Origin: Octopus vulgaris
Taxonomy: Eukaryota
Assembly: GCA_951406725.2 (NCBI GenBank)
Contig: OX597835.1
Coordinates: 25,296,001-25,360,000 of the forward strand
Length of the DNA stretch: 64,000 nt
Direction: 5' to 3'
The first letter of the stretch is position 1. The number at the start of each line of letters is the position of its first letter. The notes under the pieces were generated by a model. That model did no database searches, was not told the origin of the DNA, and saw only the letters and a program-made list of their open reading frames with translations. A program made the position numbers and the translations under genes. This document shows, one piece after another, positions 1 to 31,139 of the stretch.

Positions 1-100
1 AAGTTTATGTGTATGTGTAATCATCATATAAAAACAGAGAAACATAGTCGATTTTTTTAATAACTCATATGCTTGCATTCATTACAATAGTATAAGAATT

Positions 101-300
101 ATAGTATTTTACTTGAGTAATAAGTCACACTTGTGTATAAGTCACATAACAAATTTAGTATTAAATCTTGGTACAAAATATTTTTTCTTTACAGTTTTAG
201 CTTTGCCCTATGTAAAAGTCATGTCCCAGTTTTTTGAGGGGTTTTATTTACCAGTCAATTCAGGTATAAAATAGCACAACTTATACACAAGTAAACAAGT
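101..300. mobile_element. Decayed Tc1/mariner (pogo/Tigger-like) MITE
   Basis: Inverted ends tacttgagtaataagtc / acttgtgtataagtc versus acttatacacaagta. Confidence 0.4.
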
Positions 301-569
301 CACATAACCACAAAGGAAGTTTAAAGAAAACACACACACACACAATTGCTTTTCTAATGAGAATATCATATTATTCTGGTCAATGAAAAGTTGAGGTAGG
401 GGGGAGCTATCAATTAACCTAAGTCATTGTGTCCAGTAAACAGCCAGAGAAGGACAGCACTGAAATGTGAGCAACCATGGTCAAATCAAGCTTAGTTTAA
501 GTTCAATCAAAGTGAAATTAACTGGTGTGATTGACATTATACAAGTCACGTGACCAACATGATTACAAC

Positions 570-1510
570 CGACTGAGTGGATAAGACAATTTCACCAAGA
601 AGCTTCAAAATTTAGGTCATTAGTCACAAACGAGGAGATTTTGAGAAGAGCAATTGGAAACAGCCAGGACATGGTTACCACTTGACAGCAAACATAAAAG
701 GGGTGAGCCAAAGGTCACTCGGTAGCAGTTGGGTCACAACTGCTGCATGAGGCTGTACCAACATAGCAACAATTCAGCCTGGGTGGCCACATTGTCTGTC
801 TAGCTGATCAATGGCATGCAAAAACAATCATGAATAGGCACTTGATGGCAGGCATAAAAAGGGGCAGGCCAAAGGTCACTTGGTAGCTGTTGGGTCACAA
901 CTGCTGCAAGAGGCTGTACCAATTCAGAGCACCAATTCAGCGTAGGTGGCCACATTCTCTGTCTAGTTCAGGGGTTCTCAACCATTTTTATCTATGGACC
1001 CCTTTGATTACTATTTTTTTCCAGTGGACCCCCATAGCCATTCAATGTCTAAAAACTAGTTTTATAGAAACTTCTTTCGAAATTCCTGTTTTGTTTTTCA
1101 CACATTCCTTTGTACAAGTCAAACAATGTAAAACATTAGAGAAAGAAACCCAGCTGTTTCTTGCATTACATACCACATCTAAAGCAAATTTTTTCAGGGA
1201 CCCTTAAACTACTATTGTGGATCCCAAAATTTACTATTTTGCTGTGTGGGTCCCCCAAAATCTTATATGAACCCTCAGGGGCCATATGGACCCCAGCTGA
1301 GAATCATTGGTGTAATTGATCAATGGTACACAAAGACAACCATGAACAGGGTACCACTTGATTGCGGGCATAAAAGGGGTAGGCCAAAGATCTCTTGGTA
1401 GTAACTGGGTGAATAAGACAATTTCAGCCACAAGTATCAAAACTTGGATTTTTTGTCACAAGGAGATTCTTAGAAGAGCAAAGTCACAATCACTGCAAGA
1501 GACTGTAGCA
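570..1510 (+). mobile_element. Locally duplicated, decayed RTE-like LINE 3' fragments
   Basis: Three copies of cacttga..gc..gcataaaa.gggg.aggccaaaggtcact.ggtag; one frame reads LGGHIVCLADQWHAKTIMNRHLMAGIKRGRPK, resembling the RTE C-terminal W.GHV.R...RGRP motif. Confidence 0.5.
969..1309. mobile_element. hAT (Charlie-like) MITE, older
   Basis: TIRs CAGGGGTTCTCAACC / agctGAGAAtCAtTG; decayed 8-bp TSD gtctagtt/gtgtaatt. The empty site is visible in the neighbouring repeat copy (gtctagctgatcaatgg, ~798-814). Confidence 0.7.
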
Positions 1511-2625
1511 GAGCACCGTTTCTGTTTGGTTAGCCACATGGTTGTCCTTGCATACAGGTTTGTCCCCCATATTCCTCTTCAGCTGAGTGATTCTAATCCT
1601 GCGGGCTTGTGGGTGTCGGTGTCATGTGAAAAGCACTCGTGCTACTGCCATGTAAATAGGGCCCATGCTGGTGCTGGGTAAAAGCACCCAATGCATTCTA
1701 TAAAGTGGTTAGCATTAGAAAGGGCGTCCACCGATAGAAGCCATGCCAAAACAGAATTGGACCCCAGGCAGCTCTTCAGCTGGCCAGCTCCTGTCAAACC
1801 ATCCAACCCATGCTAGCATGGAAAGCAGATATTAAAGGCTGTTTGATAAACTACGAAAGTTTCTTGGAAATGTGCATTTGTCAGCTGTGTATCAAGTTGA
1901 GCTGTCAGCTCTTGAGAGCAACATTGCCTGTTCTGGGGTGGGTTAAGGGGTAATGTGCAGGTTTGCTATGTTGAAAAGTGCTGATGACATGTAAAGTGGT
2001 TGAAATTAGGAAGGCCATCCACCCATAGAAACCATGCCAAAACTGACATGGACCCCTAAGCAGCTCTTCAGCTGGGCAGCTCCTTTCAAACTGTCTAACC
2101 CATGCCAGCATGGAAAATGGACATTAAATGATGAGTATTAATTTATTATTCTCATGACCTTGTGGTCATGAGTTCAAATTCTGCACAGTCCTTTGTCATA
2201 CCCCTCTGTGAACACATGTGGCTGAGCGGTTACGATATTCAGTTCACGGTTGTAAGGTTGTGAGTTCAAAAACAGGCAGCGCATTGTATCCTTGAGCAAG
2301 TCACTTTATTTCACCTTGCTCCTGTCTACTCAACTGGCAAAAGTGAGCAGTACCTGTAATTCAAAAGGCCAGCTTTGTCACATTCTGTTTCAGGCTGAAT
2401 CTACCTGAGAACTACAAAATGGGTATGTTAAGGCTGTTTTGCTGAGTGGATCAACTGGAACCTTAATCGTCATAACTGACAGTGATAGTTTTTTTGCTTC
2501 TACACAATGACTGGTTTCAAACATCAAGCCCTAATATTTGAATTTGATCAATACGAGGAAATGAAACAGAGTAATGATACCTTGTAAGCTTCAGCTTCAA
2601 ATAAATGAAATAAATTCTTCATATA

Positions 2626-2796
2626 GGCACAGGAGTGGCTGTGTGGTAAGTAGCTTGCTTACCGACCACATGGTTCCGGGTTCAGTCCCACTGCGTGGCA
2701 TGTTGGGTAAGTGTCTTCTACTATAGCCTCGGGCCGACCAAAGCCTTGTGAGTGGATTTGGTAGACGGAAACTGAAAGAAGCCTGTCGTGTATATG

Positions 2797-2835
<39 letters not shown>

Positions 2836-3052
2836 ATGTATGTTTGTGTGTCTGTGTTTGTCCCCCTAGCATTGCTTGACAACCGATGCTGGTGTGTTTA
2901 CGTCGCCGTCACTTAGCGGTTCGGCAAAAAGGAGCGATAGAATAAGTACTGTGCTTACAAAGAATAAGTCCCAGGGTCGATTTGTTCGACTAAAGGCGGT
3001 GCTCCAGCATGGCCGCAGTCAAATGACTGAAACAAGTAAAAGAGTAAAAGAG
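2626..3052 (+). mobile_element. tRNA-derived SINE, family A (full length, internal microsatellite)
   Basis: A box tggctgtgtgg, B box ggttcagtccc, (AAAGAGT) tail. More than 15 full or partial copies, e.g. 8093-8470, 8563-8980, 12940-13320(-), 16695-17055, 36095-36482, 45210-45520, 63820-63980(-). Confidence 0.85.
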
Positions 3053-3248
3053 AGAGATATACTGAGTCATTTCATTACCCATTTGTAAACCTATACATGT
3101 GTGTGTATGTGGGTGCATGTGTATCATGCTCTGAAGCACAGAAAGACCTGTAGTAACTAAGACACGAACTCAGAACAGCACTAACACAGCAGTTGTGGCC
3201 CGTTCTGAAGATGAGGTGAACAAAAGGTGTTGTGTTGATTATACTTAC

Positions 3249-3395
3249 ATTTCCTCTTTCTAACAAAAGTTGGCATTTACTAAGACAATCTGGGGAAGAA
3301 GCAAAAGCAACAAGGGCTTTCTCGGCATCACTGCGTAAACTGCTGTCAGCAGTTTCGTACATCTGCTTGCACAGATTCTCCAGTTGTAGTAATTC
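3249..3395 (-). CDS. XPO7: Exportin-7 (XPO7/RANBP17 family), coding exon 2
   Basis: 147-bp phase 0-0 exon with a pyrimidine-rich acceptor (ttctcttcttag) and a gtaagt donor. Translates [49 protein letters not shown], matching the recalled exportin-7 N-terminus (LENLCKQLYE...AEKAL...[15 protein letters not shown]). The gene continues left beyond the window. Confidence 0.95.
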
Positions 3396-3821
3396 CTAAG
3401 AAGAGAAGCAAAAAGAGAGAGAAAGAGATAAACAAGTGAATTTCCCAATCACAAGAAAAAATCATACCTTTATCAACAAACAGAAGCAACAAAAGTTTTT
3501 GCACTCAAAAAGTAAAATACAATTACCTTGTTATTTTATGCATATATTTGTGTATGTTTGTGATATATATATATATATATATATACATATATATATACAT
3601 ACATACACACCATAAAAACCCAGGTAATTTGCACACCTGTGTAATTTATGCAGGTGACTTTCAGGATAAAATTTGTTAAAAAAGGCTTCTACTCATGTAG
3701 AGGGGGGAAAGGTTTTCAATTTAGTCGTATTTAGCATAAATTCACTTACTTATGATTAGATTTTATTAAATTTTCATTAAATAAAAATAATTTCTGTTTA
3801 ACAGGTATCACATTGAAAGCT

Positions 3822-4281
3822 AAGTCCTTCTGGTGACGTTGATTGCCTGGGGCTAAAAGCATCAGTAACACTCCCCCCTCCCAGTGGCTAGCCACATTCA
3901 GATGGCTGATACCCCTTACGTTGTCGAGCGGTTACTGTTTATATCTCGTTCAGAGATTTATTATTGTTTTCAGACAGTTTTTCTACATCAGTGACAGTGG
4001 TTACTGTGAAAAACATTATATATTACTTGCGAGGGGACTCCTTCATCGAAGACCGGTGCTTACCATGCGTTGACGAGAGGCAATTACCTTGAAACTATAG
4101 TCCGTATGTAGTACTCGGGTCTTCGAGGGAGGATGACCTCCCTTTGCAAGTAACACAAGGACACTGAGATAGTGTCTAAAGTCCTTCTGGTGACGTTGAT
4201 CGCCTGGGGCTAAAAGCATCAGTAACCCCCCCCCCCCCAGTGGCTAGCCACATTCAGATGGCTAATACTCCTTACGTTGTC
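3822..4281 (+). mobile_element. Retrozyme / Penelope pseudo-LTR-like element (~1.3 copies of a 357-bp unit)
   Basis: Direct repeats of ~103 bp at 3822-3925 and 4179-4281 flank a hammerhead-ribozyme motif. Confidence 0.6.
4064..4108 (+). ncRNA. Minimal type I hammerhead ribozyme motif (two core deviations)
   Basis: CATGCG-TTGACGA-GAGG caatta CCTT-GAAA-C tata G-TC|CGTATG. Stem I CATGCG/CGTATG, stem II GAGG/CCTT, palindromic stem III ACTATAGT, GUC site ending at 4102. Stem I extends through TCGAAGACC/GGTCTTCGA. Confidence 0.7.
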
Positions 4282-5233
4282 TGTGTTGTTTATCATAAAC
4301 TTTATTTTACATTTCTTGCCCACAAGAGATTATGTCCGATCTTTAGTATACTGCTGTATGTCTTCTCAAATCATGATCACAGGAAAAGTTGTTAAGAATT
4401 ACCAACAAAAACAAAGCTGATAAATATGCACAGGTGTTGCAAATCAAGTTTAATTACCAATAAACACTAGCTTGGATGACACTTTACTCAACCAACAGAG
4501 GTGACCAATCAAACTGATTATGTAAACAGAGTTCTTTTCTGCCTATTCTTGTCGGAACTTTTGATACGGAGTATCGAAATTTTAATCCCTTTTACACTTA
4601 CAAAATATAAAGCAAACTATAAAATTTGTCATTACTGTTATTGTCAGTATGAGCGGAACTTATAAATCATTTACTGCAAAAGAGAAATTAAGTATGTGCT
4701 CCACTGTGATAAGTAGAAACTCGAGGCAATCTAAAATATGGCCCAGACCATGTTTACCAGCATGAACATCAGACTTCAAAAAGTAGTTAACCGGTTAATG
4801 GTTTTAGTTACTTTATATTGAAAAAGTAAGCAATATACCATCCAGCATAAATAAAAGTTAACTTCATTATGTGTATTTAAGCCATTATTTTTCAGTAAAA
4901 ACCTATTCTGACATTAAATGAGTCAACTTCCAGTACGAATTTTTACATTTTGTATAAATGTAAACATAAAGAAAGCAAAGACTGAAAATTTCCAGACAAT
5001 GAATATTTAAGTATAAATATTTAAATATTAATATATTGATTAATCAAGCTTATACAGAGTACAAAAGACGGAGAAAATTAAAGGGGCGTCCAATATATTG
5101 GCCTGGGGTTATAGCAGGAAACACTTTCCCAAGGTGTTGTGCCATTTGGTAGAAAAGTGAACTTCTTTCATACAATTGATACAACAATTTAGAACAGCTA
5201 CGAAGACATTTCTCATCAGCTATTAATACGCAT

Positions 5234-5270
<37 letters not shown>

Positions 5271-5273
5271 CAT

Positions 5274-5600
5274 TGGCTCAGTGGTTAGAGCATCGAGCTT
5301 ACGATCGTGAGGTTGTGAGCTCGAATCCCGGACCGGGCTGCGTGTTGTGTTCTTGAGCAAGACACTTTATTTTTCACGTTGCTCCAGTTCACTCAGCTGT
5401 AGAAATGAGTTGCGACGTCACAGGTGCCAAGCTGTATCGGCCCTTGCCTTTCCCTTGGACAACATCGGTGACGTGGAGAGGGGAGACCGGTATGCATGGG
5501 CGACTGCTGGTCTTCCATAAAACAACCTTGCCCAGACTTGTGCCTTAGAGGGTAACTCTCTAGGTGCAAACCCATGGTCAGTGTCTGACCGAAGGGGGTC
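5274..5600 (+). mobile_element. tRNA-derived SINE, family C
   Basis: tRNA-like head tggctcagtggttagagc...tcgaatccc followed by ttgagcaagacacttt...cactcagctg body. Other copies at 10810-11050, 11170-11480 and 40034-40890. Confidence 0.8.
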
Positions 5601-6038
5601 AGAAAAAAAAAAAAAACAGTCGATGACTGGCATCTATGCTAATGGAGTGCTAATAGCACCATCCGAGCATGATCGTTGTCAGAGCAGCTAACTGGCTTCC
5701 GTGCTGGTGGCACGTAAAAAGCACCATTCGAGCATGATCGTTACCAGTGTCGCTGAAAAAATATTCGACTGGGTGCCGCTGGACTGCAGGTGGCATGTAA
5801 AAAAAAGCACCATTTTAGCATGGCCGTTGCCAGAACCACCTGACTGGCCCTCATGCTGGTGGCACATAAAAGCACCCACTACACTCTTGGAGTGGTTGGC
5901 GTTAGGAAGGGCATCCAGCTATAGAAACTCTGCCAGATCAAGATTGGAGCCTGGTGCAGCCATCTGGTTCGCCAGTCCCCAGTCAAATCGTCCAACCCAT
6001 GCTAGCATGGAAAGTTAGATAGATATACATACATACAA

Positions 6039-6123
<85 letters not shown>

Positions 6124-7413
6124 CAAGATGTGTGTCTGTCATGTCGTTGAAACTAGAGATCCACCCAACTGATTTTAATGAAATTTTAAACATGCATTAC
6201 ATAGGGTCCATGGAGTGTCATGGGTCAAAAAACTTTCATAAAGCAAATTGGAAGTAGATTGAGAAAAGAGATCCTCAAACAGGATTGGCCTAAATGTTAC
6301 TCCACACCACAATCAATATGAAACAAACATTTCGTGCCCAGAATAAAAGCCGTATGTGACAAATTTTTCCCATTGTGCAAAAACAGAAAACAGGATCCCT
6401 GGTGAAAGGGAGATTCTTATGAGATGACGGACAAAGACTGAGAACCGTCTGAGTAAGCATCCCAAAAGTGGCAAGAAGTCTTGCCTGGAGAGAGCACTAT
6501 TGGTGATTGAGAAAAGTCTGCATCAGTCTCATGAAAAGGGGAGAGCAAATAAAGAAGCTTGGGTTTATAGAAAACATCAAGTGGAACCCTAAAGCCTCAA
6601 TACGCCACAAGATAGGACCCTTCTTCCAAAAAGAACAAACGACGACAGAGTGGACCTAAAGAGTAAACAAGCAACGAAGACAAACATTAAAGGCACCTAA
6701 AGTCTGCTAGAAATAACAACCAAATCTCTTCTGAAATAATACTCCACAACCTTCAAGACAAATTTTTAAAAGGGGTGCACATCAGATAACGTAGTCCCTG
6801 ATACACAAAGACAGGTTGGACACTGCTAAAATGCCTTTGATTATACAATAAGATCACATCAATCAGAACTGACACAAAAGGATTCAGCGACATAAGCAAA
6901 GTGAAATGGTTATATCTAAGAATCAAAAACTAGATCACAGACAAAGAACAACAGAAGCTAACCTAATTCCTATGGTATTTGTTGTTGTTATTATAGACTA
7001 AGAAACAATAGCTAAAAAAAACATCTTTGGCCAATAAGCATACAACAAATGGCAATATATTATTAATAGCAATTGAATAAATATCTGAAAGAGTGACAGT
7101 CATTGCAAGAAATACACAATAGACTATTGATTTCTCCCTTACATACAAGAGAGTGGATGGAAATCAGCTGAACTTACCCACTTAAATTACAGGTACTTTC
7201 TTTTAATATGCATCTGGTGCACCAAGGATTCAAATTTAGTCTGACCTAACTACAGTATTCAGAGAATCAACAACAATAGTTGCTGCTGTAGTTTAGCCCC
7301 AGGTCAAACTTGATCAGATAGGCCTATGATGGTTTCAGCTGTAATCATCCCACTCTTTATTCAAGTGTAATGTAATTTAGAATTACATTATCTAATATCT
7401 CCCTTTGTTTTAA

Positions 7414-7633
7414 ACCTTTAGCATTCAGATTACTCTGTCAGATGTAATGCTTATTTATTCAAATTGTCTTGAATTGATCATGCACTATCTCATAGATTAG
7501 AGACTTTGATGATGTGACTGTTTATTTTTAGAATAACGTCAGAGGGAGTATATGAGAGGCCAGATATGGCTAGTGCAAAGATAAAACTGGTAGAATATTT
7601 TGGCTGGATATGACCAGTTTAAGTACTAAAGGG
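7414..7633. mobile_element. piggyBac-like MITE (TTAA target)
   Basis: ttaa|acctttagca...tactaaaggg|ttaa. Further copies at ~9110-9300, 11525-11750, 13890-14000 (partial) and 19645-19860. Confidence 0.7.
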
Positions 7634-8716
7634 TTAAAGATAGTAGAGTGTAATTTGGTGGTTATTTGTAGTGGAGTGAATAACTGAGAAGAGGCTCACT
7701 CAGTTTAATTTTGTCATTAGTATGCATAAATACATCAGTTTGGAAAATTTGAAAACAATAATGTGAAAATTTGAAATGCTTCAAGTGGTTGGAACAAATT
7801 TAACAAGATTCTTTGCTCTGAAATAATTTTGGAGCTAAAAGTTCTCATCAGAGCAGTTCCTGGGAAACACACTGACATCCTATCCCAGAGTAGACAAGTT
7901 TCTCATCCAACTTAGTTCTATGAAGTTGGGGACACAGGAGCCTACGGAAAGAGAGGGGGGGTTCAAAACACACTGCATTTAGTTTAATGCACATCTATGT
8001 AAAAAGCTAATTTTTCTTTCTCAATCTCACACAAGCTTTACTGAACAAATTCAGTGCATTCTCGTAAATTCATTGTGGTGATTAACAAGATGTGTGGCTG
8101 TGTGATAAGAAGCTTGCTTCCCAACTACATAGTTCCAGGTTCAGTCTCACTGCGTGGCACCTTGGGCAAGTGTCTTCTACTATAGCCTCAGGCCGATGAA
8201 AGCCTTATGAGTCAATTTGGTAGATGGAAACTGAAAAAAGCATGTCATGTATAAGTGTGTGTGTGTATGTCTTTATGTTTGCCTCCCACCCCTCACTCCA
8301 CCATTTGACAACTGGTATACTAACATCCCCTATAGTGTTAGCAAAAAAGTCCGATAGGGTAAGTACCAGGTTTTAAAAAATTAAATATATACTGGGGTCA
8401 ATTTGTTCAACTAAAAAATCCTTCAAAGCAATGCCCCAACATGACCGCAGTTGAATGAATGAAAGCGGTTAAAAAAAAGACATTTCTGTCTCCAACACTT
8501 GTTAACAGTTAGAAGTAAAGTTGTTTTACACAATACAGCAAGTAGAGAATGTTGTTCCATTGGTGTTGGCATGGCTGTGTGGTTAGTAGCTTGCTTCCTA
8601 TCGTTCCAGGTTCAGTCCCACTGCATGGCTCCTTGGACAAGTGCCTTTTACTATAGCCTCGGGTCGACCAAAGCCTTTTGAGTGGATATGGCAGAAGGAA
8701 ACTGAAAGAAGCCTGT

Positions 8717-8770
<54 letters not shown>

Positions 8771-11700
8771 TATATTTAAGTGCATGTGTCTGTGTTTCTC
8801 CTCTCACCATCGCTGGACAACCGGTGTTGGTGTGTTTAGCAGAGACCGATGGACTAAGTACTAGGCTTACAAAGGAATAAGTCTTAGGGTCGATTTCTTT
8901 GACTAAAACCTTTTAAAACTAAAGCCATGCTCCAGCATGGCTATAATCAAATGACTAAAACAAGTAAAAGAATGAAAGAATCTGACACGAGAAAGGCAAG
9001 GGCCAAGTGGAGCTTGGAACCAGTGTTGCTACAGATCAACTCAGAAAGAGTCAAAACAAATATCGCAATGCATTGCTTTGATGGTGTTTAGATGTTATGA
9101 TTGAGTTTAACCTTTTTGCATTTAAACTGGCCATATCTGGCCAAAATATTCTACCTGTCTTATGACCAAGCCTCTCACACCTTACCCTACAATGTTATTC
9201 AAAAAATAAACAATCACATCATTGGAATCTCAAAGCTACAAGACAATGTATGATTAATTAATAAGCATTACATTTGACAGAGTAATCTGAATCCTATAGG
9301 GTAAAGGAAAATTTGGATGCTATTCCTAGCAGATCAAGAGACCACATAAAGGTTTTGCCTTCATCATTTTATCCAATATGTTGGCAACAGATGCTTCTGA
9401 TTGGCTATAATTACATATATTTAAATGTGATGTTGCTTTATTATTAATTTCTAGCATCGACAATGCAGAACTACATCAATGAAGAAACTTTGAAATACTT
9501 CAAGTGGTTGGAACAAATTTGAAAAGATCCCCTGCTTTGAAATAACTTCGGGGCTAGAAGCTCTCGTCAGAACAGTTCCTGGGTAACAAGCTGACATCCT
9601 ATCCCAGAGCAGACAAGCTTCTCATTGGACATAATTCTGACAGACAACTTGAGGGATATATATGAAGCACCCGGCTCTGGAGGCAGCAAAAGAAGAAAGA
9701 AAGAAATCAAGTAAACATCACATACAGGAGAATATAAGGATGAGTCATTTGCCCTTAACATAAGTAGTAGTATTGGTAGTAGTAGTAGTCATTCAGTGTG
9801 ACATCAAATCATTTATACTACTACTACTACATGCACCCCACTACGACCAAACACAGACCTATTACCTCTCCAGGGAAATAAGATAATCTGTTAAACTTCC
9901 ATTGACATATAAGCAACCAGTGATCGGTCTGGTCTTTTCCACACTCAGTGACTAGAAAGAACATGGCGGGAGGGGGGGGAATATTCGACAGCACTAGTTG
10001 TGGTTGATGTTGTAGTTGTTGCTGTTTGTAGTCTACAAGTCTAGTAAGCTAAATGTACCAGTTATTTCAGTCAGACAGTAATAGTTAACCACTAATAGCA
10101 GGTCAGTGAAATATATTTAGTGCAACCAAAAACAGACATGTTCATTTATTTTTTTTGCTTGCTTATTTTATTTTATTTTATTTTATTTTGGTTGGTTCTT
10201 TGTTCTTGTGTTTAAATTTGATTTGGGTTTTTTTTTTGTTTTGTTTTTTTTCCCCACCACCACCACTACCATTTCATTGGCTCTTGAAACAAAGATTCCT
10301 AATTCCTAGTTGCAGAAAAGTTTAGTGCATCATCCTAAGAATCCAATTTTCAAAAGACTTCGGTTTTCTGAGTCACCCACTTTACACAGTTCAACCATTA
10401 AAAGACTTCACTCTCAATAAAACAACCCACAAACAACACATCTCCAAGACAAGAAGATTCTACCTGCTGAAACAAACATGCACATTTTTAATACCCTCCA
10501 CCCACCACCACACACACACACAATAGCTTCTTTCAGTTTTCATCTACCAAATCTAGAAGGCTTTGGTTAAGGTGCCGTACAGTGGGACTGAACCCAAAAC
10601 CACATGGTCAGAAAGTGAACTTCTTAACCACACATCCCTGCCTGCACCTAAGATGTTTTAATTTTTAAAAAAATATATTTATAAAAATAATATTAATAAT
10701 AATTCACCAATTTTAAAATAATAAGTTGTTATACGTTGTTGTTGCATTTTTCATATGAAGAAATTCTCTTGTAAAAAATTTTGTTTCTTATTAAAATTTG
10801 GGTAATTAACAATCATGAGGTAGTGAGTTTGATTCCCGGACCAGGCTGTGTTGTGTTCTTGAGCAAGACACTTTATTTCACATTGCACTAGTTCACATCA
10901 CTGGTGCCAAGCTGTATTGACCTTTGCCTTTCTCTTGGGCAACATCAGTGGCATGCAGGGTCTTCCATAAACCGACTTATGCCTCGGAGGGTAACTTTCT
11001 AGGGGCAATCCCATGGTCATTCATGACTGAAGGAGTCCTTTACCTTTTACCCTATGTACATAAAATTGTGTAAGGAGGGAAGGCTGGTATGCATGGGCAA
11101 CTGCTTGTCTTCCATAAACAACTTTGCCTGGACTTGTGCCTCGAAGGGTAACTTTCTAGATGCAATCCCATAGCTCAGTGGTTAGAGTGTTGGACTCACA
11201 CTCATGAGGCAGTGAGTTTGATTCCCAGACCAGGCTGTGTGTTGTGTTCTTGAGCAAGACACTTTATTTCACATTGCACTAGTTCACTCTGCTGTAGAAA
11301 TGAGTTGCAACATCACTGGTGCTAAGTTCTGTCAGCCTTGGCCTTTCCCTTGGATAATATCTGTGGTGTGGAGAGGAGAGGCTGGTATGCATGGGTGACT
11401 ACTTGTCTTCCATAAACAGACTTGTGCCTTAAAGGGCAACTTTCTAGGTGCAATCCCATAGTTATTCATGACCAAAAGGGGGAAGGGGACTCTTTACTTT
11501 TAACACCATTATCATCATCTTTAACATTTTAGCATTCAAACTGGCCATATCAGGCCAAAATATTTAACCTGTTTTATGTTAAAACTAACTGACCAGATCT
11601 GGCCTCTTAAACCAACCCTACAATGCCATTCTAAAACTAAGCAAGCAGATCACAAAAATCTCTAAACTACAAGATAATGCATGATTAATTCAAAACAATA

Positions 11701-18346: not shown

Positions 18347-18437
18347 GTAAATCCCAAAAAGAACACAAAAAACAAAACAACACAAAGATGTGGTACATGT
18401 AAAGTATTAGCAGATGCACAGGGAAGGAAAGAAAGAT

Positions 18438-18474
18438 GGTTTAACGTTTCGAGCAGATGCTCTTCTTCAGAAAC
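18438..18474 (-). ncRNA. Minimal hammerhead-like motif of Penelope type
   Basis: Minus strand: gttt-CTGAAGA(A)-GAGC atct GCTC-GAAA-CG-TTA|aacc. Perfect 4-bp stem II and palindromic AACGTT stem III; stem I is only ~3 bp and the core has one extra A. Confidence 0.45.
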
Positions 18475-18531
18475 AGGAAAGTCCAATAGAAGAGAAGACA
18501 GAGGAAGAAAATTGCTAACAATTCATGTGTG

Positions 18532-18574
<43 letters not shown>

Positions 18575-27961: not shown

Positions 27962-27976
27962 CTGTTCTTCCGCCAT
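27962..27976 (-). CDS. XPO7: Exportin-7, coding part of exon 1 (MAEEQ)
   Basis: Minus strand reads aaaaATG GCG GAA GAA CAG|gtgagt. Strong Kozak context and donor; phase 0 joins exon 2 in frame. A very short first coding exon is also the vertebrate XPO7 layout (MADHVQ). Implies intron 3396-27961. Confidence 0.8.
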
Positions 27977-30367: not shown

Positions 30368-31139
30368 CAAGGAACAAGGTGGGCAGAAATGAAATGAGTG
30401 AGGCAGAGGGACCAAAAGTGTGGATGGATGGAAGTTGCAGGAGTGTATGGGGCAAGTAAGAGATGGAGAATGACTTGGATATAGAAGCCAATTACTACTA
30501 CAAACCAACGGACTCTACACAGTACCTACTATTTTCTTCATGCCACCCAAAACACTAAATCCAAAATTCCATTTAACCTAGCTAGAAGAACCCAAATATT
30601 TGTATTTCAATCTGAATGTTCAGAATAAAAGATTCCTTGAATTCCCCATTCCCCTGTATAAAGTAGGGTTGAAGGATAGTTGTAGTGAATGAAGGATGAC
30701 AAAATGATGCTAGAGTTAGAGGGAATAGGAGATAACTGATTGTATTGAACAACAGAAGAATAATGCCACAGTAGACAGGAGAAAGAAATAACATGGGATG
30801 GGCAGGCTGCAGGAGTGGGTGGAGAAGAGAGAGGCAGCCCTTGTACTATATTATATAGAAGAGGGTGAGAGGCATATGGCACTGGAGGAGGAGGAGGAGA
30901 GATGATTTGGTGACTCAGAGATGGAGGAGTGATCAGTAAAAGTGTGGGGGCAGAGGACAATATTTATTTATGGATGAAGAACAAATAACAAATGAAACGG
31001 TTCCCGGGAAGTAAGAAAAGAAGGTGGTATCTATAATGAACTACAGTAAAGGAGATTCTGGGTGGCAGGGGGTGTTTTGAGGAGGTAGGAAATTCGGTAA
31101 AAGGCCCAGTTATCCATTACACAGCGCCACAAGAACTCA

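Follow-up and report, generated by a model that had tools for sequence, protein, structure and literature searches.

A dispersed family of 357-bp units without ORFs was found in the octopus genome, and the insertion at 3822-4281 of the window (the whole 64-kb stretch of DNA that was analysed) belongs to it. Judged from its sequence, the family is by structure an animal non-LTR retrozyme (PMC7229834). We consider it probable that the reverse transcriptase (RT) and endonuclease of Penelope-like elements (PLEs) copy it from a small, probably circular RNA, and that 3822-4281 is a 1.3-unit copy made in this way. The local novelty is a natural U3.G8 hammerhead core that kept spreading. The value of these observations lies in the natural series of cores and in the insertion footprint, not in the 3822-4281 copy.

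An insertion of 1.3 units in intron 1 of XPO7

Sequence comparison bore out the initial annotation in its claim of direct repeats of about 103 bp, spaced 357 bp around a hammerhead fold at 4064-4108 (Table 1). The two repeats (3822-3925 and 4179-4281) start 357 bp apart, or 356 after a 1-nt indel in a C run, and they differ by 5 substitutions and 1 indel over 104 columns. The broader proposal, a partial-tandem insertion of a retrozyme family with a 357-nt hammerhead-bearing unit, was upheld as well, and tandem arrays were found at other loci. The 3′ end of the insertion was placed at 4278-4281 and the 5′ end at 3822/3823, inside a microhomology. Comparison with empty copies of the host repeat revealed that about 13-17 AT-rich bases of the target had been lost, and no target-site duplication was seen in the same comparison. 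The target itself (3611-3822 and 4278-4954) is an unclassified, older dispersed repeat with 511 first-look candidates in the genome.

The exons of XPO7 at 3249-3395(-) and 27976(-) place the element in antisense orientation in intron 1, between exon 1 and exon 2, and the antisense position claimed earlier was thereby confirmed. The copy has just one arm, of the short-end type, and a single ribozyme, and is therefore unable to release a monomer alone. No sign of a host function was seen for this single intronic copy, which is most likely inert.

Table 1. Coordinates of the features of the insertion and its surroundings (window positions)
Feature	Position	Strand	Remarks
XPO7 coding exon 2	3249..3395	-	100% identical to an Octopus exportin-7
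Host (target) repeat, left part	3611..3822	.	Older, dispersed; empty-site copies
Whole insertion	3822..4281	+	Single 5′-truncated arm, 1.29 units, one hammerhead; host-repeat copies lacking it are continuous at this site
One complete 357-bp unit	3822..4178	+	Unit position 1 = 3822; no notable ORF
Hairpin just upstream of first 3′ end	3889..3908	+	Conserved across sister families
46-nt "tail" bounded by the fixed 3′ ends	3923..3968	+	Ends at unit ~101 (3922) and ~147 (3968)
Extended interrupted stem I	4038..4132	+	Predicted fold; would hold both monomer ends together after cleavage
Type I hammerhead, canonical architecture	4064..4108	+	Read from sequence; predicted cleavage after C4102
Stem I	4064-4069/4103-4108	+	Read from sequence
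Core positions 3-9	4070..4076	+	U3 and G8 (wobble replacing C3-G8), family-wide
Stem II, 4 bp, with 6-nt loop	4077-4080/4087-4090	+	G10.1-U11.1 wobble, family-wide
GAAA	4091-4094	+	Read from sequence
Palindromic stem III	4094..4101	+	Predicted to form an 8-bp helix in the dimer (-7.2 kcal/mol) and to be unstable within one monomer
Partial second unit	4179..4281	+	Runs to unit position ~101, the short ("S") fixed 3′ end
Host (target) repeat, right part	4278..4697	.	Empty-site copies
XPO7 exon 1, coding part	27962..27976	-	Start codon ATG at 27976(-), then GT donor

The hammerhead fold

The sequence at 4064-4108 was scored against the type I hammerhead core (C3 U4 G5 A6 N7 G8 A9 / G12 A13 A14, A15.1-U16.1, H17 and three helices), and every position was found to agree except position 3, which is U. 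A descriptor of the motif, composed after the motif had been seen and permitting U3.G8, matched only at 4064 in the 64-kb window and had no match in 200 local shuffles. The long interrupted helix at about 4038-4132, which the initial annotation had drawn as an extension of stem I, was recovered in the MFE structure with z -4.72, and none of 200 shuffles was equally stable. The palindromic stem III that it had also described was located as claimed. The 6-bp helix I, the 3x1 internal loop and the 6-nt loop II are conserved, and may resemble the loop 1-loop 2 tertiary contact of Schistosoma.

Two other expectations failed. The covariance-model check returned nothing, as no Rfam hammerhead model matched at E<=10 in 1-10000 or 3800-4300; the core is off-consensus. 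The fold had also been set beside minimal type I hammerheads such as those of Penelope pseudo-LTRs (pLTRs), but helices of 6 bp (I), 4 bp (II) and 2 bp (III) are the canonical metazoan architecture (PMC4209133). Minimal PLE hammerheads are described with a helix II of 7-8 bp, a helix I of 4-5 bp and an extra base between 9 and 10.1 (PMC4209133); with 4 bp in helix II, 6 bp in helix I and no extra base, that type was rejected for the octopus unit. The 357-bp family has U3.G8 where a Watson-Crick 3-8 pair is expected, and its sisters have such a pair as C-G or U-A. The fold is thus best regarded as a predicted hammerhead and a candidate self-cleaving ribozyme.

A dispersed family with an unusual core

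A search of the genome (2.8 Gb) with the unit gave 2946 first-look candidates; 40 of these were scored and yielded 90 matches, the best being 92-97% identical. The exact core was found genome-wide with U3 at 246 places and with C3 at 6 (reversed control, 0). Both U3 and the G10.1-U11.1 pair were invariant in 44 of 44 distinct copies taken from the 30 best loci, and they are therefore traits of the family and not decay of the 3822-4281 copy. It follows that the two core deviations listed in the initial annotation are real without being peculiar to this copy, and that its description of a weakened copy has to be given up. The consensus it had expected (C3, CCTC) was wrong for the 357-bp family and turned up in a sister family instead.

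The family loci are built of arms in which up to 3.5 units follow one another head to tail, and an inverted arm is often present as well. The non-coding unit (GC 45%) has a period of 357 bp, inside the 150-450 bp of retrozymes, carries a type I hammerhead, and is dispersed over all large contigs without an RT ORF of its own; its copies have fixed 3′ ends and unique flanks, and a few loci (L038, L039) are segmental duplicates. In four contig sets presumed to be RNA, the unit and the flanking repeat were covered alike; contigs of this kind cannot show ends or circles.

Sister families and compensated changes

Sister families were 63-79% identical to the 357-bp unit. A generic canonical-core pattern produced 1275 matches (control, 105), and the commonest type among the first 100 of these was a 353-bp family (68% identity to the unit) in which the pairs are C3-G8 and G10.1-C11.1 and loop III reads TCGA. 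This fully canonical sister (L102:1148-1750 and many other loci) has a median identity of 98.6% and arms of up to 1.8 kb, and is the strongest candidate to produce an active circle. Further relatives carried U3-A8 with loop III TGCA, or C10.1.A11.1 (some with U4C), also with loop III TGCA, while relatives with a CG loop and either C3-G8 or U3-A8 gave 365 matches. Both C3-G8 and U3-A8 subfamilies occurred in a sister family of 358-359 bp (L273-L314), whose palindromic loop III has 2 nt. The subfamily with the C10.1.A11.1 mismatch (L109, L123, L124, L129) has spread nonetheless, several of its copies being U4C as well. In addition, U at core position 3 was found to recur among unrelated families in the genome.

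The palindrome of stem III was kept across the families in the variants TATA, TCGA, TGCA and CG, and when loop III was left free in the pattern, 1050 matches were obtained, of which the first 100 included 96 palindromic ones, as counted from the listing. The 3-8 pair was U.G in 71, C-G in 78, U-A in 22 and C.A in 3 of 174 distinct stretches, a sample that follows the search patterns used. Covariation was scored in 10 representatives, where 7 of 21 pairs had two-sided changes and 96.6% of cells were paired; slid partners gave at most 51% paired and 0 two-sided pairs, and 1 of 500 shuffles scored as high, although the 10 rows are related, and related sequences can beat shuffles without structure. 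In a tree built after masking the core (35 of the 174 stretches, at most 3 per core type, 270 columns, midpoint root, recombination not excluded), the CG-loop lineage adjoined young members of the 357-bp family and C3-G8 emerged within U3-A8 rows. Because the sister families show compensated changes in the 3-8 pair and in palindromic stem III, the compared sequences identify the motif as a real hammerhead lineage under structural selection.

These changes bear on the reading that the repeat is satellite-like DNA, spread through duplication at the DNA level, with a hammerhead-like motif by chance. The failure of Rfam to find a match and the few segmental duplicates would suit such DNA. Its presence on every large contig would not, nor would the fixed 3′ ends, the unique flanks, the compensated core and palindrome or the absence of the descriptor from 200 shuffles. 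Covariation and end structure largely refute this reading, which we find scarcely credible.

The insertion footprint

The ends of the arms were mapped in two sets. In 49 loci, which were picked by similarity or core and of which two are segmental duplicates, 80 of 87 outer ends fell at unit positions 97-105 (47 ends) or 141-150 (33 ends). When the set was chosen via the 3′ motif, 82 of 90 arms ended in two windows 46 nt apart, and their 5′ ends were scattered over the whole unit. Inverted arm pairs had one end of each type in 24 of 26 cases, and (TA)n adjoined 48 of 82 ends as compared with 238 of 5000 background positions. The canonical-core sister behaved similarly, with 60 of 66 arms at fixed ends, all 19 pairs mixed and 55 of 60 ends at TA.

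The marks described for PLEs are an optional tail of 30-40 bp, partial tandems and a 5′ copy in inverted orientation (10.1101/2021.04.23.441226), and the tail has been traced to two internal RT start sites (PMC11167929). The 357-bp family displays two fixed 3′ ends, 5′ truncation, an inverted 5′ arm and an AT-rich target, and its two fixed 3′ ends are likely two RT start sites; the hairpin at 3889-3908 would be a candidate RT-binding element. This Penelope footprint of tail and inversion is a feature absent from the initial annotation. The footprint itself is directly visible in the family, and we infer a PLE enzyme behind the insertion. It links a retrozyme to the two-site initiation of PLEs independently of sequence homology.

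The same tail, inversion and (TA)n footprint would be expected if the repeat were the 5′-truncated 3′ stub (pLTR) of a protein-coding Penelope element, and ORF-bearing PLEs with hammerhead pLTRs are abundant in the genome. However, where an arm exceeds one unit, as 19 of 82 do (up to 3.5 units), it runs on into the same unit again, the scattered 5′ ends have no common upstream body, and in the 26 loci scanned for ORFs no arm continued 5′ into an RT-GIY-YIG ORF; the PLE in one locus (L055) is a separate insertion. The sampled pLTRs, moreover, carry minimal U3-A8 hammerheads and are unrelated in sequence. We therefore hold a pLTR stub to be very improbable and keep to a retrozyme without its own ORF.

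Penelope-like elements in the genome

A very young PLE family (L149:2045-4396, L151:1713-8497) was found with 21498 first-look candidates. Its unit of about 4.4 kb has two overlapping ORFs, of 446 aa (no Pfam match) and then of 784 aa, the latter with RVT_1 and GIY-YIG domains and a CxxC linker; its pLTR has a minimal U3-A8 hammerhead and a tail of about 34 nt. A second young family (L322-L347) has 781-aa frames, about 67% identical to those of the first, and a pLTR with a minimal U3-A8 hammerhead.

Both families were considered as the autonomous partner, and neither showed homology to the 357-bp unit. No sequence common to the unit and the sampled PLEs, which comprise these two young families and a few divergent fragments, was detected (best E 0.28), and a clan-profile search for pLTR matches was negative in 39 loci. 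Widely spaced hammerhead pairs were rejected as pLTR pairs and proved to be segmental duplicates or fragments.

The probable template RNA

Measured from the cleavage site, the fixed ends are 177 and 223 nt downstream, and the site was read through in 48 of 82 arms. No pile-up of 5′ ends was seen at that site in the 82 arms (within 5 nt, 1 observed against 2.9 expected), and the same test was negative in the canonical sister (2 observed against 2.0 expected). Given the read-through and the lack of a pile-up, a cut linear monomer is therefore not the usual template; a circle or an uncut multimer is likely. Copies differed by 2.3% within a locus and by 7.4% between loci (0.7% and 1.7% in the sister), and locus-private variants were found in all copies of a locus, some on both arms. 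Such likeness fits one template per insertion and a circle that is read repeatedly, a process proposed for retrozymes (PMC7229834, Discussion); read-through and shared variants are also compatible with an uncut homogeneous multimer or with gene conversion at a later time. Folded as a circle, the monomer gave z -4.2, and the canonical sister -7.2. Stem III is absent from the predicted monomer fold and forms an 8-bp helix in that of the dimer.

The uncut multimer is central to a different reading, in which the repeat is a non-autonomous, PLE-mobilised element whose hammerhead is vestigial in this subfamily, with uncut read-through multimers as the RT template and no circle made. It would account for the fixation of U3.G8 and the G.U pair in 44 of 44 copies and for the spread of the C10.1.A11.1 and U4C subfamily regardless of its core. 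The arms are also shorter than those of the canonical-core sister, 2 of 82 exceeding two units as compared with 12 of 60 in the sister (p 0.045 in a Mann-Whitney test, with age as a confounder). In experiments on a PLE, single C3 or G8 changes abolished hammerhead cleavage and such mutants left insertion in vitro unchanged, with no reads ending at the cut site (PMC11167929), and 8 of 9 Xenopus retrozyme dimers are reported to have failed to cleave (10.64898/2026.07.22.740005). On the other hand, the 3-8 pair and the palindrome went on changing with compensation, and a lineage nested near the 357-bp family in the core-masked tree moved from U-A to C-G. The circular fold of the whole unit is stable in the terms given above, and linear copying with 5′ truncation alone would be expected to shrink the arrays at every round. 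On balance, a vestigial hammerhead seems to us unlikely, and the circular template is preferred.

RNA editing written back into DNA was rejected for the 357-bp family, since in the set of copies sharing 93% identity or more, 0 of 6 variants were A>G or T>C; in a looser first pass, the figures had been 7 of 9 locus-private shared variants against 7 of 56 single-copy variants. Over four families, A>G made up 7 of 22 shared variants as compared with 20 of 209 (p 0.007, post hoc with five contrasts tried), and outside the 357-bp family (families B, E1 and E2) it made up 7 of 16 locus-shared variants. Editing of the template RNA could lie behind this excess in B, E1 and E2, a weak lead given the small numbers.

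Proposed mechanism

In the mechanism that we favour, multi-unit loci would be transcribed, and two hammerheads would pair through palindromic stem III and are predicted to cut after C4102. Cleavage would be slow in the 357-bp family owing to U3.G8 and G10.1.U11.1, and it would free a 357-nt monomer with its ends held by stem I. By analogy, a host ligase may then circularise the monomer. A PLE protein would nick AT-rich DNA, mostly (TA)n, and reverse transcription would begin at either internal site (177 or 223 nt downstream of the cut) and continue past the cut site over a length of 0.1-3.5 units; where both sites were used on two DNA ends, inverted arm pairs would result. Counting against this explanation are the absence of an Rfam match, a U3.G8 pair unlike the natural core pairs reported, the loss of cleavage on single C3 or G8 changes in a PLE hammerhead (PMC11167929), and the lack of homology to the PLEs sampled.

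We also put forward, as a tentative and rather doubtful extension, that the octopus retrozyme clan is a natural allelic series of cores (C3-G8, U3-A8, U3.G8, C10.1.A11.1, U4C) on one scaffold of 353-359 nt, all inserted by PLEs from circles. The 357-bp family would have crossed the 3-8 pair via a U.G wobble still able to cleave in the dimer or with the PLE protein, and the rate of cleavage would set the length of the arrays.

Comparison with known systems

Animal non-LTR retrozymes of coral, mussel and axolotl, as described in PMC7229834, share with the octopus family ORF-less tandem units of 150-450 bp with GC <50%, a canonical type I hammerhead with a short palindromic helix III, a highly paired predicted circle and the lack of an LTR, PBS or PPT. 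The octopus family differs from them in its U3.G8 core with G10.1.U11.1, in its short arrays (mostly 0.1-2 units), often inverted, and in a target deletion at 3822-4281 in place of a long TSD. The available text of PMC7229834 does not mention octopus or cephalopods. No cephalopod hammerhead retrozyme was found in the literature searched, which for most hits meant listings and abstracts; the supplement of PMC7229834 could name cephalopod families.

Vertebrate non-LTR retrozymes have in common with the octopus family a proposed dependence on PLEs and an occurrence as monomers, dimers and multimers of ~300-400 bp. Their status as non-autonomous PLE derivatives was argued from co-occurrence and pLTR homology (10.64898/2026.07.22.740005), whereas for the octopus unit no pLTR homology was found in the PLEs sampled and its link to PLEs comes from the two ends, the inverted arms and the TA targets, a footprint absent from the text consulted on the vertebrate elements. 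With EN+ PLEs, such as Poseidon PAc of Anolis, it shares an optional tail, explained by a pair of RT start sites lying downstream of the hammerhead (PMC11167929), together with 5′ truncation, partial tandems, an inverted 5′ copy and AT-rich targets (PMC11167929; 10.1101/2021.04.23.441226). It departs from those elements in having no ORF, a tail of 46 nt rather than 30-40 and a canonical instead of a minimal hammerhead.

Natural cores have been reported with C3-G8 or U3-A8 pairs (PMC3088659; PMC4209133), and the U3-A8 covariation is also present in two octopus sister lineages. In the literature searched, which did not extend to the key mutational papers, no family with a fixed U3.G8 wobble was found; the octopus family with this core has at least 246 copies. 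The enzymes that move animal retrozymes and the need for hammerhead cleavage in Penelope-type mobilisation are presented as open in the field (PMC7229834, Discussion; PMC11167929), and the sister families offer ready-made core variants for testing the importance of cleavage.

Other elements in the window

A second hammerhead, of the minimal type, was noticed at 18347-18536 (-), with its motif near 18474, between two (TA)n tracts; this 190-bp stretch is likely a PLE pLTR stub. A short remnant resembling a PLE RT was seen at 30481-30555, and three to four diverged direct repeats of 65-86 bp occupy 5626-5871.
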